NCBI RefSeq assembly: GCF_030684315.1
Contig: NC_081374.1
Location: 12,202,837 to 12,266,836 of the forward strand
Length of the DNA stretch: 64,000 nt
Reading direction: 5' to 3'
DNA from: Stegostoma tigrinum
Lineage: Eukaryota
The translations under genes and the position numbers were made by a program. Each line of letters opens with the position of its first letter. Position 1 is the stretch's first letter. Positions 9,086-49,799 of this stretch are shown in pieces. Under the pieces are notes generated by a model. The model saw nothing but the letters and a program-made list of their open reading frames with translations, was not told the DNA's origin and searched no databases.

Positions 9086-9141
9086 GTGAAAAAGAATTAA
9101 AACCTACCAAGGAAGATTCTAACCCCGTTTATACTGATCTG
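9086..9141 (+). CDS. Gene A cytoplasmic exon 1
   Basis: GTTCTTAG|...CTG|GTAAGA, phase 1 to 0; (G)EKELKPTKEDSNPVYTDL, ending in YxxL. Confidence 0.8.
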
Positions 9142-18879: not shown

Positions 18880-20590
18880 AGTCAAAGCAAATGACATTTA
18901 GGAAGGACAGAAAGCTGGGAAGAGTGGAGGAGTAGATCAGTTAATTAAGGGTGATTTTTGTGGAGTAAATGCATGGCCTTAAGGTCTGGAGATCAGGATG
19001 TAGGATCAGTTTTGACAGAGATGAGAAATAGTAAACACAAGGAATTTCATATGATAAAGGAGTAGCACTCTAACAGATCGTGAATTTCAATAAACCTGTT
19101 GGACTAAAACTTGCTGTTGTGTGATTTCTGAATAAAGATAAGAGGTTATTTTGGACAATAGTTTATAGGCCCCTGACTGTAACCATGCTCCAGGATGGAG
19201 TATACAGGATAAACATTATAGGTTCTGGAGAAGAAGATATGACAATAACTGTGACAATCACTTACTATGGATACCATAAATGACTTGTCTGAAGGGACTG
19301 ACTGTAAAGATTTGTAGGAAAGTAATTACTAAGAGGACATAAGGAGTATGGAGAGAGAGCTAGGGATCAGTTCAGTGAGTGGGAAAACGTTTGGCAAATG
19401 GACTAACATGTGGAATAATGTGTACATATTCACTTTGCAAGGAACATTAGAAAAGCAGCGTCACATTCCAATGGAGAGAGCTCACAAGACTCTCAGGTAC
19501 AGATGGATTGGGGATGTCCTGAGATATGAATGAGAAAAGGTTGGAATATGGATCCAGCAAGTGGTTATGAATTGAATGTTTTGATTTTTTCAAAGGGAAG
19601 CGGAATATCAAGGCAGGGATGGTTTGCCTTAGTTGTAAAGAATATAGCTGAGACCATGCCTGCAATATTGTGTTCAGTTTTTTTCTCTCTATTTAGTAAA
19701 GGATACGGATGTGCGACAAGCAGTTCAGAGAAAGCTCACTCAACTGATACCTGACATGTGGAAGTGTGGTTATCTTATGGGGAAATGCAGGACAGTTGGG
19801 ATTCCAAACAGAAACAGACAGCTCACAGTATTGCCCCTCTCCTTCCAAAGAGCTCATGGATCTTTCAGCTCAGACAGTACAATTGAAAGGACCGATCTCT
19901 GGGTTTTGTTCAATTTACTAACTGTGAGAGATATTTCCCATGTTCTATTGTGTGTACAATGCTCAATAACTCTCAATCTGACCACAAAGTAAACAATCAC
20001 ACTATGCTCACACAACTCACATGAATTCAATACTTAGTTGGATGATTTTTTTGGAGAGGAGTAGAGTTCATTAAGCCCGGTATGACTATAATTTAAATTT
20101 ATTCATTAGCTTCAAGTATAAATAATTTGGTACTGAATTAATTATAGTTCCTTGTTTAATCAGATACTTTCTAATGAGGGAATGAGCTATAATCCGTTAG
20201 CTGCTCTTTGCTGATCTGGCTGACCTCTGTATCAGTCACGTGCTACACTCGGTTTCAGGCCCAATCATTTAAACCTTTCTTTCATATGCTTACAAATATT
20301 TCACGTCAGTCCAAAAGCTCAAGGACTTTGCAAGTCGCCCAGAAAAGCAGCAACTAACCCACCCCAAAATGAAATGACTTACTCATAAACTGTTACTGAA
20401 AGAACCACTGGTGCCATTCCAGTGTGAGAACATTGGCTTTTGGGCTTCAGTTTATACTTGTCAACAGAATAGTTGGTTGGCCTGAAGATTTTTGGTTTAA
20501 ATTGGAAATCTATGATTGGATGAATCAAATACTCAGTTCATGCAAAATATTTATATTCATTTAACAGTTATTTTATAACCTCATCCACAA
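18880..20590 (+). repeat. Old paralogous block (partner ~38070-39645): decayed CR1 plus activating TM exon region
   Basis: Collinear similarity, roughly 80-85% by eye. Compare ORFs 19711..19992 and 38800..39042. Confidence 0.85.
20164..20399 (+). pseudogene. Dead activating-type (Arg) TM exon, paralogue of 39213-39453
   Basis: Same acceptor CCTTGTTTAATCAG|. Reads YFLMRE*AIIR*LLFADL, so both Trp codons have become stops (TGA 20183-20185, TAG 20198-20200), with a later frameshift. Confidence 0.8.
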
Positions 20591-21700
20591 CTAAATTCAC
20601 ATGGGATTCGGGGAAGGCTGACTTGATGGATAAAAAAAACTGGCTTGGTCACAGAAAACAGAGGGTATCGATGGAATGGTGTTTTTCAGAATGGAGACCG
20701 GTAACTAGTGTTATTCCTCAGGTATAAGACTTAGGTCCTCTGTTGTTTGTAGTATGTATAAATGATCTGGAGGAAAATGTGAGTGGTATAATTAGTAAGT
20801 TTTCAGATAACCTGAAGATTGTTAGAGTTACTGAATTGTAAAAGGATATAACTGGATATGGATAGATTGGCAACTTGGGGACAGAAGTGAGAGATGGAGT
20901 TTAATCCAGACAAATGTGAGGTGATGAACTTTGGAGGATCAAATTTAGGTGTGCATAGTACTGTTAATGGCAGAACCCTTAGGAATATTAACATACAGAC
21001 GGATCTGAGTGTATAGGCCAACATCCCTAAAATTGGCAACACAGATGGCCAAGGTGATTAAGAAGGCATATGGCTTCATTGGCTAGGACATGGGGTATAA
21101 GAGTTGCCAAACCATGTTACTGCTATATAAAACCGTTGGTAGGCTGCTTTTGGAGTATTGCATGCAGTTTTGGTTGTCACATTACCAGAAGGATGTGGAA
21201 GCTTTGGAGAGATGCAGAGAAGGTTCACCTGGATGTTGCCTGGTCTCGAGGGCACTGGCATTGAGGAAAGGTTAAAAAGACTAGGATTGTTTTCACTGGA
21301 AATATGACAGCTGAGAGGACACATGGTAGAGGTCTACATAATTATGAGAGGCATAGATAGGGTTGATAGTCAGTGCCATTATTTTAGAGATGAAGTTTCA
21401 ATGACAAGGGGGCACAGGTTGAAAGTGAGTGGGCAAAAGTTTAAGGCAGATGTGCGAGGGAAGTTTTTTACACAGACAGTGGTAGGACTCTAGAATGCAC
21501 TGCCAGAGGAGGTGGTGGATGCTGGCACATTAGCAACATTTAAGAGGCATCTGGATGGTTACATGAATAGGGAGGGAACAGAGGGATACAGACTGAATAA
21601 AGTCGGAAGGCTAGCTTTTTAGTTTAGTCAGGGCATGATGATCGGCACAGGCTTGGAGGGCCGAAGGGCCTGTTCCCATGCCGTACTTCTCTTCTGTTTC
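20590..21700 (+). mobile_element. CR1-type LINE 3' fragment
   Basis: Degenerate RT C-terminus (LLLYKTVGRLLLEYCMQFW) and a GGGCCGAAGGGCCTGT tail. Absent from the paralogous block at ~39.7 kb. Confidence 0.88.
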
Positions 21701-21789
21701 CAAATGTCACATTGAACTGAGGTGTGGGAGGTGGCACCTAAAAGTGTCTGAGCTTAGCCAAAGTGTGTTGTATTGTACAATCTGAAGCA

Positions 21790-23460
21790 TTAGACCTGTT
21801 GACTTGGATGTACACGCGTGAAATTGAATCTCCCCTGAATCTAGGAACATGAAACAATTTGAGAGAAGCCAAAATCTCACCATTTAAACCAGGCTAACTC
21901 CACCCATCCACACAGATGTGGGTTTTTGACAAGTATCTCTTGAAGTGCCTCACCTTTGAAGGACGCTCAATTCATTCATCCTCATCGGTTCCAGTGCTTT
22001 AGATTCATTTCTAAATCTGTTCTCCAGCCAAATAAGGGAAGGATCAACTGGATACTTTGGACACAGAATGGAAATGAAGCCAATTTCCACGTTAAGATGG
22101 GTCAGAAGATTCATTAAGTCATGCAAGAAAGTCCAAAATATTTCACCTTGTATTTAGAAGTTATTTCACGATATTTTACGATTTCACATTTTAATACAAT
22201 CTGAAAGGCTTTGTAAACTCTCCATTAGAGTCACTTCTCAATATTTTTACAACTGAGGTTGGAGAGGTCACAGTCACTCTCGTCCTAATACTGCACAACT
22301 CACAGGACAAAATAAAAATAAATTTTCCAGTTCCCATGACATCTAGTTATCCATATCAGTCAAAGATCAATCAAGTTTCTTAATAAACACAATCGTTGAT
22401 CTTTTGTGAAATGAAACTTATTCAACAATGATGCAATAATTGGTTAACATTCACAGTCAGTACAACAGATATACATGCTTAACTCTCTAAATATCCCCTA
22501 ACTACAGACACAACATACTCACACTCATACAGATACACTCACACTCTGGAAAATAGAAAATAAAACAGATTTCTCTGCGAGGGATTGGTTCACTGAAAAC
22601 TAAACACTTTGGCCAAAGGATTATTCGAAGGGAAAAGCTCAGGATGCTTCAGAGTCTGTTGTTCTGATATTCTGGCAAGTGTGCTCATGTCATTAATCAC
22701 ATATAATTGTAACAGAGATAATGGGAACTGCAGATGCTGGAGAATCCAAGATAATAAAGTGTGGAGCTGGATGAACACAGCAGCCCAAGCAGCATCTCAG
22801 GAGCACGTCAGCTTTTTGGCTCCTGAGATGCTGCTTGGGCTGCTGTGTTCATCCAGCTTCACACTTTATTATCATTAATCACATATGGTTGTCTCAGGGT
22901 CCTTGCAGCAACTGCATGCCCAAGAAATACAATGTTCAGATGATTTTTTTTAAATCGTTCTTTCAAAAGTACAATCATGCTACATCATGATCTGAAATAG
23001 AGATTTGTTATTCAGAAATTAGAGTCGTCAAGTCTTACTGCATGGAACCAGACTCTTCAGTCCAACTAGCCCATGTCAACCATGTTCCAAAACTAAGCTA
23101 GACCCACCTGCCTGTATATGGTCCATATCCCCCCAAACCTTTCCTCTTCATTTATTTTCCAAGCTTCTTTTAAATGTTGTAACTACAGCTGCATCCAGCA
23201 TTTCCTCTAGCAGTTAATTCCACGCACTAGACATGTCTGTGAAAAACATTTGCCCCTCATGTCCTTTTTAAATCTTCTTCCTCTCACCTGAAAAATACAC
23301 CACCAAGTTTTGATCTCACCATCTCACTACCAATGGATGTTTGCTATTCATCTTATCGATGCCACTCATGATTTCATAAATCTTTTTCTGGTCACCCCTC
23401 AAACTCTTATGCTCCAGTGAAAAAAGTGCCAGCCTATTTTTATAAATCAAACCATCCATT
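21790..23460 (+). repeat. Old paralogous block (partner ~39845-41750)
   Basis: Collinear similarity, e.g. CTGTTCTCCAGCCAAATAAG and TCTGAAAGGCTTTGTAAACTC, including a shared minus-strand CR1 tail. Confidence 0.8.
22712..22871. mobile_element. Penelope-derived fold-back insert
   Basis: TSD TCATTAATCACATAT at 22690-22704 / 22872-22886. The paralogous site at ~41160 is empty. Confidence 0.85.
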
Positions 23461-23635
23461 CCTGGCAACATCATGTTAAATCTCTTCTGTACCACCTCCA
23501 GGTTAATTATATCTTTCCCATATCAGGCTGACCAGAACTGCGCGCAATATTCTCCAGAACAGGCCTCACCAATGTCTTGTACAACCACAACATTATGTCC
23601 CAAATTCTATATTCAAAGGTCTGAGCAATGAAGGT
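23015..23635 (-). mobile_element. CR1-type LINE 3' fragment
   Basis: Reverse-complement CR1 RT C-terminus and 3' UTR. Confidence 0.8.
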
Positions 23636-24260
23636 GGGGAGACCAGCTGGGCTGCTTTATCTTTGTAAGCTTTCCTCCAAACTAGCTGGTTCTCATCAAG
23701 CTTCCCATCATGTCGATTTGCTTTTTTGCAGGCTTCTCTCTAATTAAGCCAGATAAAATAAGCATCTCTCCTAGTCAGTCACTGATCAAAACAGCCCAGC
23801 AGGGTAAACTGCAATGCACACCATTATCAACAGTCTTGTTATTACTTGGGAGCCTTATTGAAAGAAATCTCCAATGTCAAGTGTGCTATCCATGTCCTAT
23901 TTTCCAGAAGCCACTTTCAAGTGAGACCACAAAACTTAAAATAAGTTACATTTTCACAATACTCGAAAATTTTGAACATCTGAATAAGCCTAAATATAAA
24001 GCAACTTCATGACAATAAGATGATACCTTATTCTTTTTTACAATTTGAAAATATTAGTAATGTTTCCAAAAATTGTATCAATTATTTCTGTAACAAAAGG
24101 TAATTAGCTTTTACTTGTATATTCAGGAGCAAGTTGTATTCTTTGCAATTGTCACAAATTACACAATTCAAGAAAATAACTCAATCCTAGTTTGCATTAA
24201 CCAGCAATAACTCCTGTAAAAATATGTTTCATTCTGCTTTTGAAATATAATATAGTAATT

Positions 24261-24700
24261 GGGTTAATTCCCATAAATATGTGGAGGCGGGTTCGGGTGC
24301 ATGTGGAAAGTTCCATCATGGAAATTCCAAATCACAGCCACATTCTGCCTACCAACAACTGTCACCGGGACTGATTGCCTGTGAACTGGGAACTGTCACG
24401 CAGCTATCTGATGAGTCATGTAAATTTTCAACTTGACAATTAAATTTTGTTCCAATGAATGATTCAGCTTTTAAGCACCAGCCGACCTATTTCCTAGATT
24501 GTGTGGAGGCTGCGGCCCTCACGCAGGTATGTGCACAAAACATCTTCAGTGAACTTAACAGGCTGGGAAACCTTCGAAAATGGAACAGAAGTCATGGCCA
24601 GGTAAGAAACTACTGTTCACAGCACTGCATATCACAGAGGGTCTCAGTGAATGACAGATGATTACCAACACCTTTGAAAGAACCGACTTCCTGTATGATC
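24261..24700 (+). promoter_or_regulatory. Candidate immune-inducible promoter
   Basis: kB-like GGAAAGTTCC (24305-24314) and GGAAATTCC (24320-24328), GC-box-like GGAGGCGGG (~24283), AP-1 TGAGTCA (24412-24418) and ETS ACTTCCTGT (24686-24694). All lie in unique sequence just before a leader-like exon. Confidence 0.4.
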
Positions 24701-24750
24701 ATAGGGCTTAAAATTAGCCCATTTGGTTTTCGGCATGGAGAACTTCATGA

Positions 24751-24808
24751 ATGCTTGTATCTTTGCTGTTTTTCTCAGTGCTTCGCCTTATCCTACTGCA
24801 TACCTGAG
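24751..24808 (+). pseudogene. Orphan leader-like exon with in-frame stop
   Basis: MLVSLLFFSVLRLILLHT* + G|GTAGGT (phase 1, strong donor). An alternative frame from ATG 24735 is open but ends in phase 2. Confidence 0.45.
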
Positions 24809-25173
24809 GTAGGTTACTCAAACCTTTGCATATTCACATTATGGTGGTAACCACCAAATCAACTGAATGTAGTCTCCTGAACAACATTTCCAGTTGTTAC
24901 AAGTAGTCCTCCCAAGTATCATGGTACACTACCTGGCTATTGCCTGGTTCATCATCCTCTAGAAAGTTGCTGAAGGATTTTTTTTTGACAGAACGACGTC
25001 AATCAGCATTGGAAAAGGCCATCTCGAATGTTAAAAGCTAATATTGTTTAGTACTGGCTGTTAAATATAGTTACTGGTATCACCTGAGCAAATCTGTTTT
25101 TGTCGGAAATTTGGCATGGTCAACCCTATCAATACTATCTGCCAAGTGAGGAATTGGGTGGAACTGTATTTTC

Positions 25174-28790: not shown

Positions 28791-28869
28791 TACTGTGGTT
28801 GAGATCAGCCACACTTCACTTCACTGTTGTCGTGACGACGAATTCAGTATGTGATTTGTGATCTAATAA

Positions 28870-28990
28870 TGACTGAGGAAGCACCTACAAACATAATGAG
28901 GAACGCTGTAGATGACCAATGAATCCTTCCAGATTGCCAAAGAGGAACTGGTGAACCTTAGTTTGAAGCAGGAAATGATAGTTATAAATG
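28870..28990 (+). promoter_or_regulatory. Gene B candidate promoter (PU.1/ETS cluster)
   Basis: GAGGAA at 28875, 28898 and 28942 (AAAGAGGAACTG), CAGGAAAT 28969, CCAAT 28916 and TATAAA 28983. All are within 200 nt of the leader. Confidence 0.5.
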
Positions 28991-29072
28991 GGTCTCAACT
29001 GATTCAAACACAGCCTTCCTGGCAGACAATATCGGGACAGCGAAATTTCACCCAACAGAAACATCCGAAGCA

Positions 29073-29112
29073 TTGACAGCAATTGTGTTTTTCATTCTTA
29101 TCTCTGTATCAT
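29073..29112 (+). pseudogene. Gene B leader exon, start codon lost
   Basis: TTG ACA GCA ATT GTG TTT TTC ATT CTT ATC TCT GTA TCA T|GTAAGT. The paralogue at 43442 has ATG. No in-frame ATG occurs before the upstream stop at 28959. Confidence 0.85.
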
Positions 29113-30099
29113 GTAAGTTTTCATTAAGACCACAACCTTTACTATGATGAAAATGTACTTTGGTAATCAGAGCTGAGAAAGGCCAGAAATGGTTCCTGAC
29201 ACAGTCATCAGTCGGATTGTTGAGATGAATTAATGCAAAATCACCGACAAATTCTTTAGAAAGTTGTTACTGTGGTTGAGATCAGCCTGCTTCTCCAGCA
29301 CCGCCAGCCTGGTTTTGCCTGGTTTGCTTCTTTCTGTGGGACCCCATTGCACCCGAATGTTTCTGTCCTGTCTGAAAGGAGAGTTCTTTGTCAGTGCAAA
29401 CACAGGAAAACACACTGCACGCTGTTTTAGAGACAAAATAAGCTCCAGATGCTGGAATCCAAGGTACACAAAGAGGAAGCTGGAAGAACCCACAGGCCAG
29501 GTAGCATCTGGAGGAAAGGAGCAATAAATGTTTCAGATATTACTCTTCAGGGGGATCCAATTGTGTTTGTCACTGAAATAAACAATTTGTAGCGTGGGTT
29601 AATCCCAAAAGGTTGACTGCACCTTTCACCTAGATGCTGTCTGTCCTGCTGTGTTCTTCCAGCCTGCTCTTTCTCTACCTTGAACTGCAAGCTTTTCTTT
29701 GAAGTAGCACCTAAAACCACCCAAAGTGCTTCAGAGAAGGGAGGGCTAGAGTGCAACAGTGTTATTCTTCAGTGTGCTATCCAAAGGCTCAGGCTCAAAC
29801 CCCACAATGGTGGATGGAGTCATTTGAACTTTACAAATCTGAATATCTATCACACCCTTCAGGGAAGGAAATCTGCCAGCCGATATGTGATTCCAGACCT
29901 ACAGCAATCCAGTTGATGCACGATTGCTTTAGAAACTCTCAATGTACTCAGCTCAGGAATAGTTACAGAGGAGCAACATGGGTGTCAGTGGGGGGTGCAT
30001 TCCTGGAAAGAATTTATGAAATAATATTTCAAAATGTAAAATTTGGCACAGGATCCATTCCATCCAATATCATGCCTTATTCAAAATTAGGCACCATGA

Positions 30100-31425
30100 C
30101 ATGATGCCTAATTGTATTCTCAGAGACAAGGATTGATTTGAAATAAGCAGCATGGTTTTGTGGTGGGAAATTCTGTTTCATGAACTTGATTTGAGTTTTT
30201 TTAGTGGAAGAAACATAGAAGATTAAGGGCAGAGTAATAGACATTTTTTATATGGACTTCAGTAAAGCTTTTGATAAAGATTTGCACAGTTGGCTAGTTA
30301 GCAAAGTTGGACCACAAGAAATGGGGCTGGGGGGAGATTGCCAATTTCACATGGAATTGGCTTTATTGGAAGAAACAGAGTCAGTGGTAGAAGGTTGTTT
30401 TTCAGACTGGAGGCCTGTGAACAATGATATTCCACACGGATCTGTACTGGGTCCACTTCTGTTTGTCATTTCTGCAAAAAATTTGGATTTACATACTGGA
30501 ACATGGTTAGTAAGCTTACGGATGACACCAAGATTGGTGGTATAGTCGTCAGTGAAAAATGTTAACTAAGAATTCAATCTTGATCAATCAGGTCACTCAG
30601 CTGGGCAGTGGCAGATGGAGTTTCATTTGGATAAATGCAACTTATTGCATTTTGGGAAAACAAACAAGGGCTGGACTCATACAATTAATGGTAGAGCCTT
30701 GGGTAGTGTTGTGGAACGGAAAGACTGAGGGGTTCCGGAACATAATTCTTTGAAATTTGCACCATACGTATACAGGGTGGTTAAGAGGATGCTTCGCAAG
30801 CAAGTCTCCATTGCGCAGACTTTGGAATACAACAGTTGGGATGTCATGTTCAGGTACACAGGATGTTGGTGAGGCCTCTTCTGGAATACTGTGTGCACTT
30901 TAGGTCACCCTGGTATAGGAAGAATATTATGAAAATGGAGAAGTTTCACAAAAAATTCACAGGATGTTGCCGGAAATGGTGGGTTTGAGTTATGGATATC
31001 AGCTGGATATACTGGAACTCTTTTCCACTGGAAAGTAAAAGGTTGAGGGGTGACCTTATCAAGATATATAAAATCATGAAAGCCATAGAGAAGATGAATA
31101 ACAATGACCATTTCCCTCAGTTGGGGGCATTCAAATCTCAGGGGGCCATATTTTTAAAGTGAGAGGTGAACGATTTACAAAGTACATGAGGGGTAAAATC
31201 TTTACACTGAGAGTGGTCGTGTGTGGAATGATTTACCGGAGAAAGTGTGGTGTATGCAGGGTCAGCTATGACACTTAAAAGACATTTGGATGAGCACATG
31301 ACTAGGAAAGGTTTGGAGAGTAATGAGAAAAATACAGGCAACTGGCATTAATTTAGTTTGGCTGCATGGTCGGTGTGGAAATGTTGGAATGAAGGATCTG
31401 TCACATGCTGAATAATGCTACGACT
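30100..31425 (+). mobile_element. CR1-type LINE fragment in gene B intron 1
   Basis: MDFSKAFD, PHGSVLGP and 3' UTR. Duplicated at ~44470-45780. Confidence 0.88.
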
Positions 31426-32354
31426 CAAGGAAACTAAAAAGCAACTTCAATCAAAGTCACTGATTACCTCCACGTAAACAAACTACTCAATGTTAGTAAG
31501 GATAGAATACCAGAGTATGGCCCATCAATCCACAGTCTCACTTGCTCAGGAAATGTGACAACAGGCTCCAACAAGGTCAACTGTCTGTCTTCTTTCACAA
31601 GGAATAATTGATTGGAGGAACAATTAAACATGTCAATATTTTTGTGAAAGCCATTGACAAGCCAGGGGCTGTGTTTTCCTTTGGCACCTTGAGTGAGTGC
31701 TCAGGGGATCCAGCAAACAGAACGCATGTGTGTCCAGAAACCTCTGTTTGCCAGGCCCACCCTAACACCCACAATTCTCTGTGCACTTAGAAATGGGCAG
31801 ACTGAGAGACGAGTGAGAAGGAATGGAGGAATTCACCTCGAGTGAGCTTCGTTCATCTTCTCAATACCAAGGATCAGTGTAAATGGAGAAGATAAATCAA
31901 TCATATCATCAACAATCTTCCCATAAAGCACTGACATGGAGAATCTGGAACAAAAGATAATCACTTGCTCGTTTTTCACACTGTTGGTTTAAAACTTGGA
32001 TTTACACAGTAATGTAGGTGACAGTTTCGGTGAATGTCACTCACTATGAGGAAAACTCAGTATTGAAAAGGCGATGTTTCTTCAGAAGGCAAGAAGAAGG
32101 GTCCCGAACCAAAAGGTCAGCTGTCCTGTTCCTCTGACGCTGCCTGGTCTGCTGTGTTCATCCAGCTCCACACTGTGTTGCCTCTGATTCCAGTGTTGTC
32201 AGTCCTTACTATCTCTGTGTTGAAAATCTAGTTTGACATCTAAATATAAGGGAGGGTGCTACAACAACGAAACAGGAGTTCTTGTTTTATTAAATATTCT
32301 GTTTCCTGACTCTCTGACAGGTATTAATAATCGTTCATTGTTATATCACAATAG

Positions 32355-34314: not shown

Positions 34315-34423
34315 TGCCTACATGGAGCTCGACAATGGGACCAACCAGCAGCATCGCAGGAACTACTCAGTCTCATGTTACAATGGATCTGACCACATCC
34401 TCCGCCATCATCAGCTCAAACAG
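34315..34423 (+). pseudogene. Gene B mucin-like stalk exon
   Basis: CTCCTTTATAG|..CAG|GTTCGT, phase 1 to 2; (V)PTWSSTMGPTSSIAGTTQSHVTMDLTTSSAIISSN(R). Confidence 0.8.
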
Positions 34424-37025: not shown

Positions 37026-39212
37026 GACTCCTTTTGTGACAGTTCAGACCAAAAGCTCCAGCTGTTCCCACAACACCAAGGAATCTGTCACAGCTGTGAC
37101 GTTCTGCAGCATTCACACAAATCTGCACTTTGTAATGGCCATCACAGAAGCTAGGACTGACTCTTGGAGGACAAGGACTCATTCTCAACAACAGGCTGAT
37201 GGCACCTGCCACAAATCCTCACATTGCTGATGGGGAACAGAAGTCTGTGAGGCTAAGATGAGCCAGAAAGTCCCTCACAGACAGGAACAAACTGGGGAAA
37301 TGATTCCCAAGTCGGTCGGGTCTTTTGCATGGTGGAGACACAACAGTGGATGACTTCCATCCTTCACTCACGCCTAGAGAGGTCCCCTAGCATCACTGCC
37401 TCTCATTTCCCTCTCTGTCTGCACTCCTGTAACATGTTGTTGTTAGCCAATTACACAAGTATGTCATGCACATGGAGCTCAGCAGGGGAGTGATCTCCAG
37501 AAATCATCCGGTGTCAAAGATCCTGCAACAGCTGCAGTCCAGTGTCGGTCATGTGCCCAGCAGTGTGTGACACCCCTCCCTATCTATTGTCGTCAGCACA
37601 GGCACCAGGGTGAATGTCTCTCTGATGCTGGGAGATACAGAGCCCAGTGTAGACAGACGTGTGACACAGCTGCATGTCTGAGAACAGTGTGATCCAGGTT
37701 TCCTGTCTGGCTCTTTGTGATATTCCAGTCTCCCTTTCAGGCTTCAAACTACACTAAATTGTGTGGATGAAGGATCAAAATTAAAACATTCTGATAAGTT
37801 ATGTTGAAAACTTAAGGCAAGATAGCAATGTAGCAATAATTGAAACGATGCTCACCCCAAGTGACACAAACGAACAGACTGGACAGGTCTAAGAGTGCAC
37901 AAACAGATAAGACTAGTGCTTACAACAATAGCATGAAGACCGAACTGAAGGCTCTGTATCTGAATGTGCATATCATTCATAACAAAGCAGACGATTTGAT
38001 AGCACTAAATACCATAAATAGATAGAACATTGTTGATAGTTCACAGATGTGGCAATAAGATGGCAAAAGCAAGGACTTGAATGGTCAAAGCAAATGTCCT
38101 TCATGAAGAACAGAAGGCTAGGATAAGTAGAGGTGTCGCTCCGTTAATTAAGGGTGATTTTCGTAGAATAGGTACATGGCCTTAAGGTCTGGAGATTAGG
38201 ATGTTTTTGACAGAGATGAGAAATTGTAAAGGTGAGGTCATTTGTAGCACTATATTATAAGTCCAGAACTGTAAGCACGCTGCAGAGTGGAGTATACAGG
38301 ACAAACGTAATGGGTGCTGGTGAAGCATAACTGTAGTGATCATGACATAAAAGATCTGTGGGAAGGTATTTTCTAAGAGGACATAAGGAGTATGGATAGG
38401 GAGATAGGGATCAGTTCAGTGACTGGGAAAATGTTTGGCAAAGGGACTATCATGTGGAATAATGTGTAAGTTTCACTCGGAAATGGTACAACAGAAAAGC
38501 AGCATCGTATTCCAATGGATACAGCTTGTCAGGCTCTCAAGTGCAGAGGGATTGGGGATGTCCTTGGATATGAATCAGAAAAAGTTGCAATATTGATCCA
38601 ACAACTGATCATAGATTGAAGGTTTTTACTTGTTGCAAGGGAATGTAAAAGTAGTGATGGTTTGCCTCAGTTGTAAAGAGTATTGCTGAGAACACATCTG
38701 GTTCATTCGATACTATTTACATCTCTCCAGTAAAGGATACAAATGTGTGACCAGCAGTTCAGACAAAGCTCACCTGACTGATGCCTGACATGGGGAAGTG
38801 TGGTTATCTTATGGGGAAATGCAGGGCAGTTGGGTTTCCAAACAGAAACATACAGCTTTATAGTATTGCCCCTGCTGCCCCTCTCCTTCCAAACGCATGG
38901 ATCTCATGGATCCTTTGGCTCAGACACTACATTCGAAAGGACTGATTTCTGGATTTTAATCAATTTACTAACTGTGAGAGAGATTTCCCATCTTCTATTG
39001 TGTGTTCAAAGCTCAATAACTCTCGGGCTGACCACACACTAAACAACCACACAGCACTGACACATCTCGCTCATGAATTCAATGTTTTGTTGCAACATTT
39101 CAGGAGGTGTGGAGGATCATGAAGTCCGGCATGGCAGTAATTTAATTTTTTTTATTAGCTTCAAGTATAACTAATTTGGTACTGTAATAATTTTAGTTCC
39201 TTGTTTAATCAG

Positions 39213-39453
39213 AGACGTTCTAATGAGGGAATGGACGATAATCCGTTGGCTGCTCTGTGCTGCTCTGGTTGTTTGCTCTGTCTCAATCACGTGCTACACT
39301 CGGTTTCAGACCTTCCAGGTACAATCATTACAACCTTTCTTCCTAACATCGCAACGGTCTCACCTCAGCCCAAAAGCTCAAGCACTTCTAAGGTTGCCTC
39401 TAAAGGCAGCAAATAATCCACAAAGAAATGATTCACACATAAACTGTTCCTGA
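39213..39453 (+). pseudogene. Gene B activating-type TM + tail exon (frame itself intact)
   Basis: CCTTGTTTAATCAG| phase 2 matches the stalk; (R)DVLMREWTIIRWLLCAALVVCSVSITCYTRFQTFQVQSLQ...HINCS*. TM Arg codon at 39244-39246, no Tyr motif in the tail, AATAAA at 39582-39587. Confidence 0.8.
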
Positions 39454-39706
39454 ATGAATCACTGTCACCATTCCAGTGTCAATACAATGGCTTTGGAGTT
39501 CCAGTTTAAACTTATCAGCAAAACGGTTGATTTGTCTGCAGATTTTAGTTTTCAATTTGAAATCTGAGTTTGGGTCAATCAAATAAACAATTCATACAAA
39601 ACAATTCTTTGACTTGAATTGTTATTTTATAATCTTGTCAACATACAAGTGCGACTGAGGGGTGCAAAACAGCATCTAAAATGTATCCAAACTCAGCCTT
39701 AATGTT

Positions 39707-39798
39707 AATAAAATGTGAGGCTGGACGAACACAGCAGGCCAAGCAGCATCTCAGGAGCACATTATCTTGGAATCTCCAGCATCTGCAGTTCCCATTAT
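39707..39798. mobile_element. Penelope-derived micro-insert (two inverted pieces)
   Basis: 15-bp TSD CTCAGCCTTAATGTT at 39692-39706 / 39799-39813. Confidence 0.8.
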
Positions 39799-40504
39799 CT
39801 CAGCCTTAATGTTTCCCATTCTATCAGCTGGAACATCAGACGTATTGAGATGGACATGTACCTGTGAAATAGAATCTCCCCTGGGCCAGTCAGTAGAAAT
39901 ACGGCAGACAAAACTTCACCACTTAAACCAGGCCCTCTCCACCCAGCCTTGCAGCTCTGGACTTTTCACCAGTATCTGTTGAAGGGTCACACCTATGAAT
40001 GAGGCTCAATTCATTCATATTCGTCAGTTCCAGTGCTTTAAGTTATTTCTTATTCTGTTCTCCAGCCAAATAAGAGAAGGATCAACTGGAAACATCAGCC
40101 ACAGAATGCAAATGAAACAGAACTCCACTTGAAGATGGATCAGAAGATATATTGATTCATGCAAGAATGTCCACAATATGTTGTTCTTGTATTTAGAAGT
40201 TAGTTTGCAGTATTCCGATATTTCACACTTTAATTCGATCTGAAAGGCTTTGTAAACTCACCATGAAAGAAAGTACTTCTCGATATGTTTACAATTGAAC
40301 CAGGAGAGAGCGTAGTCATTCAGGTCTTAACACTGCACAGCTCAAAGCGCAAAGTCAAAATACATCTTCCAGTTTCCATGACAACCAATTACCCATATCA
40401 ATCGAAGATCAATACAGTTTCTTGTGAATCAGGTCATTGGTTTGTGATGAAAAGAAACTTATTCAACACATAATCAGTAATTGGCTAGCACGCACAATTA
40501 GTCA

Positions 40505-40935
40505 GATAGGAGAGTATAGATTACCAGCTTCTGACAATGACTCCAGGCCTTCAACAGCTGCCAGCCTCAGTGCAAGCACCATGAGGGCCCTCCCGAACTG
40601 GTATGGCAGCACCCGTGGCATCGCAACCTCTCAGCCTAGCATTGGTGGTCTGGAGCAAACTCCAAGCCGCATGAACCTCAAGGTGAAGCCTGCTACAGTC
40701 TGAAGCCAAGGCGGGCTGGAGGCTTGCTGCCAGCTCAGTATGGGTTTGAGGACCAGTGTTCTGGGTTTTATTTTCGTGATGCTTGACATTTCATTTCTCG
40801 ATTTTCTGAGACTGTACAACTGAAGAAGCTGTACCCAGGTACATTGGACCCATGATGGCACTGTAACTGGCGATGTAGCAATTTTTCAGTGTACTTATTC
40901 AGTATAAGTGACAATAAAGCTAGCTCTAATTCTAA
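40505..40935 (+). mobile_element. Unclassified retroposon with Rex1-like 3' tail
   Basis: Absent from the paralogous site at ~22460. Ends GTGACAATAAAG..(TCTAAT)n. Confidence 0.4.
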
Positions 40936-41299
40936 GAAGTGTTAACGTTTAACACAGCAAATATCCCCTGACTACACATACAAACATATTCACATACATA
41001 CACATACACTCACATTCTGCAAAATAGAAAACAAAGCAGATTCCTTTGCAGGGACTGAGTCGCTCACATACAAGCACTTTGGCCAGTGGGTTGTTCAAAG
41101 GGAAAAGTATAGGATGCTTCAGAGTCCATTGTTCTGATGTTCTGGCAAGTGTGGTCAAGTAACTAATCACATACTGGCGTCCTCTCAGGAGTCTTGTACC
41201 AGCAGGATGCTCAAGAAATACAATGTTCAGAAGGTCTTTTCATCATTCTTTCAAAAGCACAGTCATGTCTCATCATGTACTGACGTTAAGGTTTGATGT

Positions 41300-43010
41300 T
41301 CAGAAATTATACTGTCACAGTCACGCAACATGGGGAAAGGCCCTTCAATCCAAACGGTTTACACTGTCTACCTTCCCAACTAAACAGTGCCACCTGGTGG
41401 CATTTGGCCCATATCCCTCCATACTTTTTCTCTTCATGTCCTTACCCAAATCTCTTTTAAATGTTGTAACTGTACCTGCATCTACCTCTTTCTCTCGTAG
41501 TTCATTCCACACAAAAAACTCTCCGGGTAAAAATCGTGCTCCTCATCCCTTTCGCCATCATTCTCCACCCTCCTTAAAAATATACCCCCTAGTTTTGAAC
41601 TTCCCCATGACAGGGAAAAAACCTTTGCTATTTACCTAAAGTGTGCCTGTTGTGATTTTATAAACTTCTCTAAAGTCACCACTCACCCTGCTATGCTCCA
41701 GTGGGAAAGAATTACCAGCATATCCAAGCTACTTTTATAACTCAGACCCTGCTTTGTTGTTAATTAAAAGGCATTTCAGCCCTTGTTTGGTCATTATGGA
41801 CAATTAAGTTGAGAAAAGAAATTAGAAAAAGGATACATTGTCAAACCCAGGCCTATGCTTAGCGCAATCTTGACCAAACAAATCACCCTCACAGTCAGCA
41901 AATAGAGAACAATCATCTTCACTTTCGTATGGAGTTACATGCTGGGAATTAGGGGAGTAATGGACAAAGATCTGTGGGAGTTTTAATTTTGTGGTTATAT
42001 TCCTGTTTTTGTAAAGTATTTCCCTGGTTGAAAGAACATTACAGCAGAAGGACAGGTCCTTCGGCCCACCAAGACTGCACTGACATGTGACACCTTCTAA
42101 GCTACAAACCTTTCGCAGCTTTATGGTTCATATCCCTCTCATCCCTGCCTAATGATAGATCTGTGAAGATGTTTCTTAAACATTGCTATTGTACCCATTT
42201 CTACCATCTCCTCTGGCAGCGCAATCCACATGCTTCTCTAAAATACTTGCATCTCATATCTCCTTAAATCTTTCCCACTTGTACTTTAAATCAAAGTCCC
42301 CTCATAACTAATATTTCTACTTGGGGGAAGAAACTCTGAAGATCCATTTGGTCCGAGCGTTTCAAATTTTGGAAACTTCTATCAGGTCTCCCCTTAGCCT
42401 CCAACACTGAAGTGAAAGCAAATTGCATGTCTCAAATCTCTCCTCATAGCTAATTCCCTCCAAACCAGACAACATCCTGCACATTCTCCAAACGCACCAC
42501 ATCCTTCTGGTCATGTGCCAATCAGAACTGTACACAATATTCCAAATTTGCCTCCACTGAAACCCTATACATCCGAAACATATCTTCCCAAATTTTTTAC
42601 TTTAGGCTCCAACAAAAAAAGACAAGCATGTCATACGCATTCTTAATCACCTGATCCACTTCCATTGCCATTTTCAGGGAATTCTGGTCCTGTATGCCGA
42701 GATACCTCTGTACGTTAATGCTTCTAAGAGTTCAGCGATTTACTGTGTTCTTCCCCATTGCAGTCGACCTTCCAAAATGCATCACAGCACGTTTGTTCAG
42801 ATTGACATCCATCAGCTATTTCTCCAACCGAGTCTCCAGACTATCTACGTCCTCTTGGCAATCTTCTTCACCTGTTGCCCCTTCGTGATCTTTCTGTCAT
42901 CTGCATGTCACTTAATCAGAAGCCCTCCATCCTCCACCAATCACTTATATACAGACTACAAGCAACATCGATCCTTGCAGTACACCACTGGTCACAGATC
43001 TCCAGTCAGA
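41300..43010 (-). mobile_element. Two CR1-type LINE 3' fragments (41300-41750, 42032-43010)
   Basis: Reverse-complement RT C-terminus and 3' UTR motifs. Confidence 0.8.
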
Positions 43011-43239
43011 CATGGTGGAACGATACCTGCATCAGTGCAGTTGTTTCAATTATGAAAGCAACGCAAACTGAAGGTAACAGAAAGACAATCACCTGATCAC
43101 TACGCACCAATCAGGGGCTTTCTGTCCAACATGTCCCTTTGCAACATGTGATGTGACAAAGTGCAGCTTCCAGCTCAGCAGCATTCACCTCACTGTTGTC
43201 GTGACGATGAATTCAGTATGTGATTTGTGATCTAATAAT

Positions 43240-43350
43240 GACTGAGGAAGCACCTACAAACATAATGAGGAACGCTGTAGTTGACCAATGAATCCTTCCA
43301 GATTGCCAAATAGGAACTGGTGAAACTCAATTTTAAGCAGGAAATGACAG
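43240..43350 (+). promoter_or_regulatory. Gene C candidate promoter (ETS/PU.1 cluster)
   Basis: GAGGAA at 43244 and 43267, CCAAT 43285, CAGGAAAT ~43338. The third site is TAGGAA, and the TATAAA of copy 1 is TTTAAA here. Confidence 0.5.
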
Positions 43351-43441
43351 TTTTAAATGGGTGTCAACTGATTCAAACACAGACTTCCTGGCAGACAATA
43401 TCGGGACAGCGAAAATTCACCCAACAGAAACATCCGAAGCA

Positions 43442-43481
43442 ATGACAGCAATTGTGTTTTTCATTCTTATCTCTATATCAT
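43442..43481 (+). CDS. Gene C leader (signal peptide) exon
   Basis: GCAATGA start; MTAIVFFILISIS + T|GTAAGT. Phase 1, joins the V exon as ..ISIS-C-SHQLTGP. Confidence 0.88.
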
Positions 43482-44469
43482 GTAAGTTTTCATTAAGACC
43501 AGAATCTTTATTATGATTAAAATGTACTTTGGTAATCAGAGCTGAGAAAGGCCAGAAATGGTTCCTGACACAGTCATCAGTCGGATTGTTGAGATGAATT
43601 AATGCAAAATCACCGACAAGTTCTTTAGAAAGTTGTTACTGTGGTTGAGATCAGCCTGCTTCTCCAGCACCGCCAGCCTGGTTTTGCCTGGTTTGCTTCT
43701 TTCTGTGGGACCCCATTGCACCCGAATGTTTCTGTCCTGTCTGAAAGGAGAGTTCTTTGTCAGTGCAAACACAGGAAAACACACTGCACGCTGTTTTAGA
43801 GACAAAATAAGATCCAGAATGTGGAATCCAAGGTACACAAAGAGGAAGCTGGAAGAACCCACAGGCCAGGTAGCATCTGGAGGAAAGGAGCAATAAATGT
43901 TTCAGATATTACTCTTCAGGGGGATCCAATTGTGTTTGTCACTAAAATAAACAATTTGTAGCGTGGGTTAATCCCAAAAGGTTGACTGCACCTTTCACCC
44001 AGATGCTGTCTGTCCTGCTGTGCTCTTCCAGCCTGCTCTTTCTCTACCTTAAACTGCAAGCTTTTCTTTGAAGTAGCACCTAATGCCACGCAAAGTGCTT
44101 CAGAGAAGGGAGGGCTAGAGTGCAATGGTGTTCTTCTTCAGTGTGCTATGCAAAGGCTCAGGCTCAAACCCCACAATGGTGGATGGAGTCATTTGAACTT
44201 TACAAATCTGAATATCTATCACACCCTTCAGGGAAGGAAATCTGCCAGCCGATATGTGATTCCAGACCTACAGCAATCCAGTTGATGCACAATTGCTTTA
44301 GAAACTCTCAACGTACTCAGCCCAGGGATAATTACAGAGGAACAACATGGGTGTCAGTGAGGGCTGCATTCCTGGAAAGAATTTATGAAATATTTCAAAA
44401 TGTAAAATTTGGCACAGGATCCATTCCATCCAATATCATGCCTTATTCAAAATTAGGCACCATGACATG

Positions 44470-45780
44470 ATGCCTAACTGTATTCTCAGGGACAAGGATT
44501 GATTTGAAATAAGCAGCATGGATTTGTGGTGGGAAATTCTGTTTCATGAACTTGATTGAGTTTTTTTAGTGGAAGAAACATAGAAGATTGAGGGCAGAGT
44601 AATAGACATTGTTTATATGGACTTCAGTAAAGCTTTTGACAAAGATTTGCACAGTTGGCTAATTAGCAAAGTTGGACCACAAGAAACGGGGCTGGGGGGA
44701 GATTGCCAATTTCACATGGAATTGGCTTTATTGGAAGAAACAGAGTGCGGTGGTAGAAGGTTGTTTTTCAGACTGGAGGCCTGTGAACAATGATATTCCA
44801 CACGGATCTGTACTGGGTCCACTTCTGTTTGTCATTTCTGCAAAAAATTTGGATTTACATACTGGAACGTGGTTAGCAAGCTTACGGATGACACCAAGAT
44901 TGGTGGTATAGTCGTCAGTGAAAAGGGTTAACTAAGAATTCAATCTTGATCAATCAGGTCACTCAGCTGGGCAGTGGCAGATGGAGTTTCATTTGGATAA
45001 ACGCAACTTATTGCATTTTGGGAAAACAAACAAGGGCTGGACTCATACAATTAATGGTAGAGCCTTGGGTAGTGTTGTGGAACGGAAAGACTGAGGGGTT
45101 CCGGAACATAATTCTTTGAAATTTGCGCCATACGTAGACAGGGTGGTTAAGAGGATGTTTCGCAAGCAAGTCTTCATTGCGCAGACTTTGGAATACAACA
45201 GTTGGGATGTCATGTTCAGGTATACAGGATGTTGGTGAGGCCTCTTCTGGAATACTGTGTGCAGTTTGGGTCCCCCTGTTGTAGGAAGAATATTATGAAA
45301 ATGGAGGAGGTTTAGAAAAAATTCACAGGATGTTGCCGGAAATGGTGGGTTTGTGTTATGGATGCAAATTGGATATACTGGGACTCTTTCCCACTGGAAA
45401 GTAAGAGGTTAAGGGGTGACCTTCAATTCATGAAAGGCATAGATAAGATGAATAGCAATGGCCATTTCTGTTGGGTGAGGTCATTCAAAACTATGGGGAC
45501 AATATTTTTAAGGTGAGAGGTAAAACATTTAAAAAGAACGTGAGGGATCAGTTTTTTCAACAGAGAATGGTCCGTGTGTGGAATGATTCCCCAGAGAAAA
45601 AGTGGTGTATGCAGGGTCAGTTATTTCTCTTAAAAGACATTTGGATGAGCACATGACTAGGAAAGGTTTGGAAGAATATGAGCTAAATACAGGCAACTGG
45701 CATTAATTTAGTTTGGCTGCATGGCCGGTGTGGAAATGTTGGAATGAAGGATCTGTCACATGCTGAATAATGCTACGACT
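44470..45780 (+). mobile_element. CR1-type LINE fragment in gene C intron 1
   Basis: Paralogue of 30100-31425. Confidence 0.88.
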
Positions 45781-46709
45781 CAAGGAAACTAAAAAGCAAC
45801 TTCAATCAAAGTCACTGATTACCTCCACATAAACAAACTACTCAATGTTAGTAAGGATAGAATACCAGAGTATGGCCCATCAGTCCACAGTCTCACTTGC
45901 TCAGGAAATGTGACAACAGGCTCCAACAAGGTCAACTGTCTGTCTTCTTTCACAAGGAATAATTGATTGGAGGAACAATTAAACATGTCAATATTTTTGT
46001 GAAAGCCATTGACAAGCCAGGGGCTGTGTTTTCCATTGGCACCTTGAGTGAGTGTTCAGGGGATCCAGCAAACAGAACGCATGTGTGTCCAGAAACCTCT
46101 GTTTGCCAGGCCCACCCTAACACCCACAATTCTCTGTGCACTTAGAAATGGGCAGACTGAGAGACGAGTGAGAAGGAATGGAGGAATTCACCTCGAGTGA
46201 GCTTCGTTCATCTTCTCAATACCAAGGATCAGTGTAAATGGAGAAGATAAATCAATCATATCATCAACAATCTTCCCATAAAGCACTGACATGGAGAATC
46301 TGGCACAAAAGATAATCACTTGCTCGTTTTTCACACTGTTGGTTTACAACTTGGATTTACACAGTAATGTAGGTGACAGTTTCGGTGAATGTCACTCACT
46401 ATGAGGAAAACTCAGTATTGAAAAGGCGATGTTTCTTCAGAAGGCATGAAGAAGGGTCCCGAACCAAAAGGTCAACTGTCCTGTTCCTCTGACGCTGCCT
46501 GGTCTGCTGTGTTCATCCAGCACTACCCTGTATTATCTCTGATTCCAGTGTTGTCAGTCCTTACTATCTCTGTGTTGAAAATCTAGTTTGACATCTAAAT
46601 ATAAGGGAGGGTGCTACAACAATGAAACAGGAGTTCTTATTTTATTAAATATTCTGTTTCCTGACTCTCTGACAGGTATTAATAATCGTTCATTGTTATA
46701 TCACAATAG

Positions 46710-47027
46710 GTTCACATCAATTAACTGGCCCCGGGGATGTTCATGGAGAAGTAGGAGGATCAGTCACTGCTGAGTGCAAATATCATCAGAGCTGCAAGGA
46801 AAATGTGAAATACTGGTGTAAAGGTTATCATTACATCCGTTGTTCTATTATTGTTTCAACTGATAACCCACAAAGTGGAAGAGTATCAATGACCGATGAC
46901 AAAAAGCACAACATATTGTCCATAACCATGGACAACCTGATGAAGAGTGATGAAGGACGATACTGGTGTGTTATAGAAAGATTTTTCCCAAATGAGAGGG
47001 TTTCGTTCAAATTAGAAGTTTTTGAAG
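46710..47027 (+). CDS. Gene C Ig V-type exon, CD300/CMRF35/pIgR-like
   Basis: Open, phase 1 to 1; SHQLTGPGDVHGEVGGSVTAECKYHQSCKENVKYWCKGYHYIRCSIIVSTDNPQSGRVSMTDDKKHNILSITMDNLMKSDEGRYWCVIERFFPNERVSFKLEVFE. Has B-strand Cys, KYWC-x7-C extra disulfide and DxGxYWC. Confidence 0.95.
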
Positions 47028-48374
47028 GTAAGATGAATCTGTATTTCTACTTTGTCTGCTTTGCCCAAAATGGAACATTTGAAATCAGAGATACCCTCAA
47101 CTCTGCACTGGGAGTGATCCCCTGTGACAAGTCCTGAGCTCCCCACGGGGTTGGACTCTCATATACTCAAATGTCCAAATCCTGGGAATACTGACGTCTC
47201 ACAGCAAGATCCACCCACTCCATTGGGAAAGAAAGAGGGGAAATAGATTGGGAAAACCTTTCGCAAATGGGAAGCTTAAGCAGGCAGCTGTTCTGTTCAT
47301 GGCCAAAATGTTCTCACCTCATGTTTTTGACCAGCTGCCAGGACTGAAGCAGGGCCGTACCCCAAGGTTATCAGCTGGAGACCTCTCCAACGGGATGGAA
47401 ACCAGGAAAAAGTCAGACTATGTGCTACACAGCCCCTAATCCCCTGTCGCTCATCAGCCTTTACCCTCATTTCTCCCGCATTCCCGTGGTCGCAATGTGG
47501 AGACCGGCTCAGACATTACCCTTGTAACAGTTCGGCACGACCTTAGGTGCATTTTGCCTTAGAAGGCCTTTTACTTGCCTGTCATTGGGGTCATTGTCTA
47601 ATTGAGAAGGACAGTACCATGGATAGAGATGGCCATTGGTGAGGCTACAAGGAGGGTTGGAATATACAATCCAAGCCTGAAGCATTCTCAACATCAAGGT
47701 CAACCATTGCTGCTGAGATGTAGTGGGGGCTGCGGGAGCCCCAAGTGTCTCGGACTGACTGGAATGGAGTGTCCACTGAAGGCTCAGGTGTTTATCTTGA
47801 TGGGTTCCCAATTCACCAGTTCACCCTCCTGATGTCATCTGATTTCATATGGATTGTAATATCCCAAATCTGAGCAAGTTATTGGTTTAGTTATCTATTG
47901 GCTGCTCAGGGTCCTGCTGCTGGCGTTATCCCTAAGCAATGGGAAATTCCATACCGTCACCTTGCCTGTGATTTTCCAAACTCTCCACCTCCCAGCCCAA
48001 CTCCAGAAGACTGGTAACATCAAACCCATTGTTACTGTGCAACTTCCTGTCATATTACTGTCTGATTCATTTATATTTTTCATATCATTGATTTTAAGTT
48101 TGAGTTTTGCTTTTACTTTGACTTTTGGGCAGCCCTGGGAGGGTCTTCCAGGAAGTTGGTTGTGTAGACCAATGCTCCTGAAAGGCAAGGATGCAGTGAA
48201 ACTAGATTGTCTCAGAGTAAAGAGTTGATGTTTGCCGCAGACCAGTAGCATGAAGCGAAAACCCTCAAGAGGTTATGTAAAGCTGGGTGCTTTTGAACTC
48301 CCGTATCTAATAGCTCCAAGAAGAATCTATCTGCGTAGAGATAGTGACTGTAGCAGGAGTACTGTATTTGTTGT

Positions 48375-48495
48375 TAGATAATAAAATGTGAGGCTGGATG
48401 AACACAGCAGGCCAAGCAGCATCTCGCCTGCTGTGTTCATCCAGCCTCACATTTTATTATCTTGGAATTCTCCAGCATCTGCAGTTCCCATTATC
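48375..48495. mobile_element. Penelope-derived fold-back insert
   Basis: Perfect ~35-bp inverted arms. 14-bp TSD ACTGTATTTGTTGT at 48361-48374 / 48496-48509. Confidence 0.88.
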
Positions 48496-49402
48496 ACTGT
48501 ATTTGTTGTGTTTTGATGACTGAACTAGATGTGCTTTTACACTGGAAGAGAGCTGTTACTTTCCTTTCCAATTTGAAACAAATGTTGTTCTACTGTTACT
48601 GCGTGCGGTAATATGTTTCCATTTGTTTTGTAAGCTGATAGTTTGGATTATTCTACTTTCTCTTCATTTGGTTTGTTAATAAAATTCTACTTTATAGTTT
48701 CAACCAATTCTGCAACATTATGTGCAGATGTGCTTTGAGTACTGCACAAAAGCTGTTGTTTCTATTTCCAATTTAAACAGGAAATTCTTGGAATTCATGG
48801 TGTTAAACTTTTGCTGCATGCTTTAATATCTTTGTATTATAAGCCGATATTTGTTTAATCTACTTTATCTTCATTTAGTTTGTTAATAACGTTCTACTTT
48901 ATAGTTAAAACAAGATCTGCTGCATTGTGTATATCTGTTTCAGTTATTGAATACGTCGTTACACTCAAACAGAACAAAATATGATCCATGAAGCCAGATT
49001 TCGGTCTGGGATCTGAGCTGTGCTTTCAAAACATGAAGAGGATTCATAACACTGCCCCATTGCCAGTCAATTACTGTGTGAGCAAATTGTTAACTCACTC
49101 ACGCAGGAATGGCTGAAACATTGATGCATCTCGTGCTGTAATGTCTCACCTCACACTCAGTTTGTGTCTATTTTGTTGCAGTTGCTTCTGAATTTACCCA
49201 ACTGTATAATCGTCTAATACTGGTAATGCAATCATTTCATTTAACTCCAGAATGATCTAGTCATTTGCAACAAAAGCAAGATAATGTGGAAATGTAATGT
49301 TGAAGGAATGATTAACTATGACTTTTAAGTGGTTCCATTGAGGGGAGTCAACTCAGTGGGGAACATAATTTCAACCATTTTCAACAAGTTGCTCCTTTAT
49401 AG

Positions 49403-49511
49403 TGCCTACATGGAGCTCGACAATGGGACCAACCAGCAGCATCGCAGGAACTACTCAGTCTCATGTTACAATGGATCTGACCACATCCTCTGCCACCATC
49501 AGCTCAACCAG
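49403..49511 (+). CDS. Gene C mucin-like stalk exon
   Basis: Phase 1 to 2; (V)PTWSSTMGPTSSIAGTTQSHVTMDLTTSSATISST(S). The phase fits both V and TM exons. Confidence 0.85.
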
Positions 49512-49799
49512 GTTCGTCTGTGAAACGATGAAATCTATGAAGTACATCTTTACCATGATATGAACGTATCATGGTTAAAATGCTCAGGGAGAGCCCAACA
49601 CAATCTATAGTAAATCTCAGGTCATCAAGCACGCACTAGAATAAAGTGGGGCTGGAAAATCAAAAACACAGAAAAGCCAGTGGTTAGTGATTGAGCTGGA
49701 GGGGAGGCGGGTTGACATAGGTATCCTTATTATCCTGCTGTCATAAGATTGAAAACTGCCTGCTGGGCCACTTCATGAGTTATCACTTTATTTTATTCA

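Follow-up and report, generated by a model that had tools for sequence, protein, structure and literature searches.

We analysed a 64-kb stretch of the zebra shark (Stegostoma tigrinum) genome (contig NC_081374.1, positions 12,202,837 to 12,266,836; the window, with all coordinates counted from its first letter). Judged by its V domains, the window is a CD300/pIgR-like receptor cluster. It comprises the 3′ part of one gene (gene A) and two adjacent genes, B and C, whose ectodomains are 92.8% identical at the amino acid level and 95.7% at the DNA level. Gene B is a mosaic, as a preliminary description of this DNA had recognised: its C-type ectodomain is joined to an unrelated transmembrane (TM) exon. 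From their motifs gene B is likely activating and gene C inhibitory. The best explanation, to which we assign a probability of about three in four, is that B and C are an old pair whose ectodomains were most likely re-homogenised repeatedly by gene conversion, and that B was then inactivated. The analysis is based on a self-comparison of the window, a V-domain hidden Markov model (HMM) made from 14 fetched V domains, and shuffle controls.

The preliminary description had proposed a single repeated unit at 18.9-34.6 kb and 38.1-49.7 kb, running from an activating TM exon to the next stalk exon, whose duplication would have created an activating twin of gene C in one step. Homology is indeed present at these places (18881-34622 versus 38084-49710), and the repeat is out of register with the genes, as both of its outer ends fall inside introns between stalk and TM exons, one of them 1.3 kb ahead of TM copy 1 and the other about 200 bp beyond the stalk exon. 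It is not a single unit, however, but is split into separate blocks. In the old block, five segments within 18881-23437 match 38084-41723 with 79.3% identity over 2826 aligned columns (Kimura two-parameter distance, K2P, 0.244). In the young block, two segments within 28802-34622 match 43172-49710 with 95.7% identity over 5800 columns (K2P 0.044). These identities differ (Fisher p 1.3e-120), and the block ages are about 5.5-fold apart. The middles, 23438-28801 and 41724-43171, consist of repeats and unique DNA, and the unique parts of one gave no alignment to those of the other above shuffles (two of two tests). Overall, none of nine local alignments of unique segments (the middles, the gap between gene A and the first TM copy against the introns and ectodomain of B, and the B against the C intron) exceeded the shuffle maximum. 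Since one tandem duplication predicts a single age and two are seen, the proposed single step does not hold, and the apparent unit is better read as two overlapping histories, an older duplication combined with later conversion.

Within the young tract, which extends from 270 bp before the leader to 200 bp past the stalk exon, the differences are clumped. They number between 1 and 38 per 200 columns (chi2 180, 28 degrees of freedom, p 3.6e-24), the longest identical run is 248 versus 138 in shuffles (p 0.0055), and identity per 250-column window varies from 83% to 99.6%. This clumping points to several conversion events of different age. Fossum et al. coined the term merohomogenization for the KLRC, KLRI, KLRB, Ly49 and PIR receptors (PMC3210942), and patchy identity confined to part of the gene, as in such pairs, is what B and C display.

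The separate comparison of V and TM exons that the preliminary description had called for yields incongruent histories. In a tree of the 14 V domains, zebra shark B and C are sisters (support 96/94) in a group with whale shark C (99/99), bamboo shark B pairs with its own twin (94/91) and then with epaulette shark C (96/97), and the activating V of Scyliorhinus canicula (small-spotted catshark) pairs with the C-type V of S. torazame (cloudy catshark) (94/93). Uniting the three activating V domains in one clade is rejected (approximately unbiased test, p-AU 1.8e-25), and a 9-row ectodomain tree concurs (p-AU 1.2e-45). TM exons, in contrast, group by type. Local scores are 111-142 among activating exons versus 17-33 between activating and C-type exons (the zebra shark gene A row was left out of this matrix), and the TM arginine is retained in the activating exons of zebra shark, bamboo shark and catshark. 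Ectodomains thus sort by lineage and signalling exons by type, the second feature that the zebra shark genes have in common with merohomogenised pairs.

Whole genes of the B type exist outside the zebra shark, contrary to the idea that a new activating twin was created here. The bamboo shark model XP_043572432 carries an intact leader, V and stalk on a B-type TM exon, and XP_038675621 of the small-spotted catshark is intact with an Arg-bearing TM. The latter was found by phmmer with the B TM exon, which gave three matches; one of them, an unrelated repeat protein, was dropped. A word-index search with the bamboo shark TM exon returned only the query gene (both of two candidates). The protein search with gene C gave 10 matches among 223 candidates, among them C-type inhibitory proteins from epaulette shark, horn shark, smooth-hound and cloudy catshark as well as bamboo shark XP_043572432. 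The spacer is shared as well. In the bamboo shark twin XP_043572430 a second leader-V is spliced to it (scores 80 and 61 versus a shuffle maximum of 46), and the cloudy catshark model XP_072338017 has the order V (63% to its C), spacer (76 and 58 versus a maximum of 53), gene C. For both linkers the two spacer copies of the window are the top two matches, above all 60 shuffles. Together, the B-type genes and the V-spacer-C order in the catshark model indicate that the pair predates the 96% similarity. The arrangement of activating gene, then this spacer, then C would accordingly be older than the carpet sharks. Both Cx7C cysteines, which its relatives keep, are missing from the small-spotted catshark activating gene, and the 5′ V of the cloudy catshark model is without the conserved tryptophan of the C strand; decay of activating partners may be under way in catsharks as well.

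Gene B is a pseudogene in the zebra shark sequence. Its start codon is TTG instead of ATG at 29073, with no in-frame methionine upstream, and TGA replaces CGA at 32603 in the V exon. Both lesions are specific to B, as gene C and the whale shark gene carry methionine and arginine at these positions. The postulated activating twin is therefore not a working one in this sequence, where only one partner encodes a full receptor, while the bamboo shark and catshark models are intact. An AATAAA/ATTAAA-type signal follows the TM/tail exon at 39582. The tail of gene B is open for 79 codons versus 38 in the bamboo shark, probably owing to a small frame change after the TM (39310-39453). Bamboo shark isoforms splice from a donor within the V exon, and the same GT is apparently present in zebra shark B at about 32461; its use would bypass the TGA, but most of the V domain would be lost and the ATG would still be absent.

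Gene C has an intact V domain (Pfam V-set, E 9.4e-14) with pIgR and CD300 as nearest matches in the PDB. The V domains of B and C carry a second cysteine pair, Cx7C, within the Cx6-9C spacing of the family; the Cx7C motif is treated in bioRxiv 2022.04.21.489081. The RefSeq name 'CMRF35-like' is automatic, and our CD300-like label refers to the likeness of the V domains; CD300 genes proper are marked by orthology and by synteny with the GPRC5C-RAB37 interval. In the tail of gene C, three ITIM-like (immunoreceptor tyrosine-based inhibitory motif) tyrosine motifs were read in XP_059509195, the respective exon lying beyond the window. Thus, going by motifs alone, a charged TM without ITIM in B faces an ITIM-like tail in C, as is typical of paired receptors. 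An arginine in the TM is the feature through which receptors pair with adaptors of the FcR-gamma type. The V domain of gene C has an extra cysteine at 46793-46795 (TGC versus TAC in B, tyrosine in the whale shark), which is derived and likely unpaired.

The TM exon of gene B has a second copy at 20164, which is a dead orphan exon. No V exon lies upstream of it according to the V HMM, which found V exons only at 32.4 and 46.7 kb, and scans with the V-domain HMM and tblastn detected no ectodomain remnant in the interval from gene A to this exon. We infer that it is the remnant of a former gene, here called X. The bamboo shark has two ectodomains that precede a spacer copy, an arrangement to be expected had the orphan TM exon formerly belonged to such a gene. 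The two TM copies differ by 8 nucleotides in 17 codons, and their minimum distances to the bamboo shark TM are 6 and 8. Conservation is 86% in the TM exon versus 80% in the surrounding stretch, a difference that carries no weight as evidence. Exon phases are uniform, as previously stated: each of the three stalks ends in phase 2, which is also the starting phase of every TM exon (A, B, C and the dead copy). Because paralogues inherit their exon phases by common descent, this uniformity is expected anyway and gives no support to the modular swap system that had been suggested. No swapped transcript was seen, but the data examined contained no RNA, a search of sequencing runs having listed no RNA run with this sequence.

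Taken together, the following course of events would account for the data. The presence of an Arg-TM exon on a C-type ectodomain in bamboo shark and catshark suggests, by TM orthology, that the pair predates the split of carpet sharks and catsharks. An older duplication involving the activating gene would have left two copies of the TM exon and its 3′ flank (K2P 0.24), after which the upstream gene X was presumably stripped of its ectodomain and left with a decaying TM exon. Following the separation of zebra and whale shark, conversion at several different times would then have returned some 5.8 kb of genes B and C to 96% identity, with the membrane-anchor exons of the two genes probably staying distinct throughout. 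Finally, gene B gained its two disabling changes, which are visible in the sequence. By analogy with known pairs, an intact B would share the ligand of C and signal via an ITAM (immunoreceptor tyrosine-based activation motif) adaptor through its TM arginine, opposing the ITIM-like tail of C.

Several points weigh against this scenario. Repeated replacement by unequal crossover yields the same trees as conversion. The outgroup evidence consists of RefSeq protein models, three of them fused, and short junk linkers; an off-frame TM match in the catshark model, taken alone, is not significant (score 50 versus a shuffle maximum of 61). The 10 matches of the gene C search include no inhibitory-TM gene C from the bamboo shark, the catshark activating gene and the catshark C come from two different Scyliorhinus species, and the terms 'activating' and 'inhibitory' are assigned from sequence motifs only. 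Moreover, the whale shark model XP_048467770 lacks gene B and thereby resembles an unduplicated state. It consists of gene A, junk exons matching 23734 and 24778 in the spacer found in copy 1 only, one ectodomain, and an inhibitory TM. The whale shark linker agrees with copy 1 in 25 of 32 residues versus 58% expected at the paralogue level, i.e. between the spacer copies (p 0.014). A linker at the orthologue level, together with spacer copies at K2P 0.24, implies that both copies likely predate the split of whale and zebra shark. Either a later deletion between the converted ectodomains produced the whale shark state, or the gene model passed over B. This state resembles the SIGLEC14/5 fusion (SIGLEC14-null), in which converted 5′ regions have recombined, so that the activating gene is deleted and the inhibitory coding sequence comes under the other promoter (PMC4042635), although here it is known from a fused gene model and not from DNA. 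The model hints at a similar fusion loss of B in the whale shark.

Among the alternatives, an old origin of B by unequal crossover between the ectodomains of X and C, which would have duplicated the TM-spacer-ectodomain segment out of register, made B a hybrid and been followed by conversion, is the most serious one, albeit less likely than not. It is compatible with the best explanation, the sole difference being the register of the old duplication, whose trace in the middle ectodomain conversion has overwritten. In its favour, both outer homology ends lie in stalk-TM introns, and the divergence of the TM copies (8 nucleotides) is close to their distances to the bamboo shark (6 and 8), so that an event near the base of the carpet sharks is possible. 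The mechanism is documented for FCGR2C, in which one step fused an inhibitory ectodomain to an activating 3′ part at an out-of-register duplication join (PMC6563257), which is an exact precedent for the duplication model of the preliminary description. On the other hand, the spacer homology breaks off 5.4 kb ahead of the promoter in copy 1 and 1.45 kb ahead of it in copy 2 and leaves no residual match, so that separate later deletions would be needed, and the first activating twin is left unexplained, as catsharks already have one. A recent event of this type fits even less. Whereas FCGR2C is described as having collinear modules of about 94% and as absent from outgroups (PMC6563257), identity in the shark is bimodal, with a non-homologous gap between the blocks, and the outgroups already have an activating gene (XP_043572432 and XP_038675621); the hybrid is absent only from the whale shark model.

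A birth-and-death process, in which each lineage by unequal crossover set a fresh C ectodomain before a persistent activating TM exon and lost the earlier ectodomain, has slim prospects. It would produce the same lineage-wise V tree, and the copies of the young tract share insertions of long and short interspersed nuclear elements (LINE and SINE) and have sharp ends. Its patchy divergence, however, points to several events and not to one copy. Far less probable still is the strict form of the duplication model, a single recent tandem duplication of 18.9-34.6 kb that made a functional activating twin. Layout and exon phases agree with it, and so does the whale shark model with gene A, the copy-1 spacer and an inhibitory gene but no B. 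Yet it predicts one level of divergence, and the two ages refute it unless evolution was about five times faster in the spacer than in the introns. In addition, the two copies of TM and spacer have diverged from one another to a greater extent than the whale shark linker has from copy 1, B-type genes occur in bamboo shark and catshark, and zebra shark B is disabled.

That the 96% block is merely a falsely duplicated haplotype is scarcely credible, although near-identical tandem copies are a common assembly error and no single contig spans the whole stretch. We consulted contigs from two sequencing runs (X1 and X2; two samples of one study, either of which may be the source of the assembly). 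Both runs contain the intron, TM exon and spacer that only B has, with 0-2 deviating letters in the pieces listed, and in each of them the B-specific junction at 34622 is covered by a bridging contig. Contigs of the shared ectodomain have a depth of 15-18 versus 8.5-11 for B-only contigs in X1, and 33-39 versus 17-22 in X2. With about twice the single-copy depth, two ectodomain copies are real. Furthermore, the B-only TM exon is orthologous to that of the bamboo shark. A contig of X1 also crosses the stop at 32603 with no difference listed. Among the pieces listed for two further runs, X8 and X9, there were repeats only, which says nothing about expression.

The mechanism we favour, conversion of ectodomains between old partners, is known from mammalian paired receptors and apparently undescribed in sharks. 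Literature searches on the locus found no published description of this shark pair, their coverage being incomplete and excluding supplements. In primates, the ectodomains of CD300A and CD300C undergo conversion, and the activating gene has repeatedly been lost or turned into a pseudogene by premature stops (PMC12447643). The shark pair is similar in having a single V of the CD300/pIgR-like type, ectodomains kept alike by conversion, a conserved inhibitory gene and a broken activating one. In contrast to CD300A/CD300C, the TM arginine lies at the outer edge in the shark, and the pair appears far older than primates; the likeness is one of receptor type. As described for merohomogenised pairs and for SIGLEC11/16 (PMC5701461), the signalling exons predate speciation, the ligand-binding exons are more alike within species, the tracts are patchy and non-functional activating alleles occur. 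Unlike in KLRC, where stalks are reported not to be homogenised (PMC3210942), the stalk exon, leader and proximal promoter of the shark genes were homogenised too. Among cartilaginous fish, the known family of this type is that of the MDIRs, for example MDIR1-4 of the clearnose skate, which, as in zebrafish, are multigene families of activating and inhibitory CD300/TREM/pIgR-like receptors (cited in PMC3031540); no MDIR sequence was among the matches of the protein searches with the shark genes.

These results add sharks, and a CD300/pIgR-like pair much older than primate CD300A/C, to the mostly mammalian record of ectodomain homogenisation in paired immune receptors. They also bear on the life span of activating receptors, which might either arise from inhibitory ones as transient offshoots or persist as long-term partners that conversion keeps in step; the data favour the latter. 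A bolder reading, to which we lend less than even odds, is that one activating anchor exon has been kept since before the split of carpet sharks and catsharks and was repeatedly re-armed from its inhibitory neighbour, and that two sister species, zebra shark (through point mutations) and whale shark (through a SIGLEC14/5-type fusion deletion that left C under the upstream DNA of B), silenced it independently. If true, cartilaginous fish would possess a paired-receptor system of great age that renews itself and passes through the full life cycle known from mammals.

The features of the window are compiled in Table 1.

Table 1. Exons, repeat blocks and spacer of the receptor cluster in the 64-kb window.
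Feature	Position	Strand	Evidence
Gene A stalk exon, phase 1 to 2	1970..2030	+	tblastn of whale shark XP_048467770; splice sites
Gene A TM exon, uncharged, phase 2 to 1	7172..7278	+	protein mapping, splice sites
Gene A cytoplasmic exon with tyrosine motif	9086..9141	+	protein mapping
Gene A last coding exon	13431..13556	+	protein mapping
Old block, copy 1: LINE-like remnant, dead TM exon, 3′ flank	18881..23437	+	79.3% to 38084-41723
Orphan activating-type TM pseudo-exon	20164..20260	+	acceptor intact; stops at 20183 and 20198; 2-nt deletion near 20222
Spacer unique to copy 1	23635..25173	+	25/32 residues match junk exons ahead of inhibitory gene in whale shark model
Young tract, copy in B: leader, V and stalk exons with introns, preceded by 270 bp of upstream DNA	28802..34622	+	95.7% to 43172-49710, patchy
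Gene B leader exon, start codon TTG	29073..29112	+	splice sites, alignment to C
Gene B V exon, Cx7C type; TGA at 32603-32605	32355..32672	+	alignment, splice sites
Gene B stalk exon, phase 1 to 2	34315..34423	+	splice sites
Old block, copy 2: LINE-like remnant, gene B TM exon, 3′ flank	38084..41723	+	self-comparison
Gene B TM/tail exon, open 79 codons, Arg at outer TM edge	39213..39453	+	78% over 36 aa to bamboo shark XP_043572432
Young tract, copy in C, with 728-bp C-only insert 47937-48664	43172..49710	+	self-comparison
Gene C leader exon with ATG	43442..43481	+	protein mapping, splice sites
Gene C V exon, intact	46710..47027	+	100% to RefSeq XP_059509195 (Stegostoma tigrinum); Pfam V-set
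Gene C stalk exon, phase 1 to 2	49403..49511	+	splice sites
Gene C TM exon, uncharged, phase 2 to 1	59062..59192	+	protein mapping
Gene C first cytoplasmic exon	62630..62682	+	protein mapping

Three RefSeq models at the locus proved to be fused: XP_048467770, XP_059509195 and XP_072338017 merge neighbouring genes of this cluster, and XP_059509195 includes a further receptor gene with two V domains downstream of C, beyond the window. The stalk-TM intron of gene C contains an inverted pair of 0.85-kb repeats (77%; 55788-56635 and 57103-57924).

The V exons of gene A are located upstream of the window. The tyrosine motifs in the tails of A and C were assessed against the ITIM consensus; the tail of A (9086-9141 and 13431-13556) has tyrosines but no clean canonical ITIM, so that its inhibitory label is weak. 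A two-copy repeat of 140 bp lies in the last intron of gene A (9851-9992 and 12442-12583). The stalk exon of gene A is surrounded by a 1-kb inverted repeat (3-1021 and 2204-3212, 97.4%), the arms of which could invert or excise the exon.

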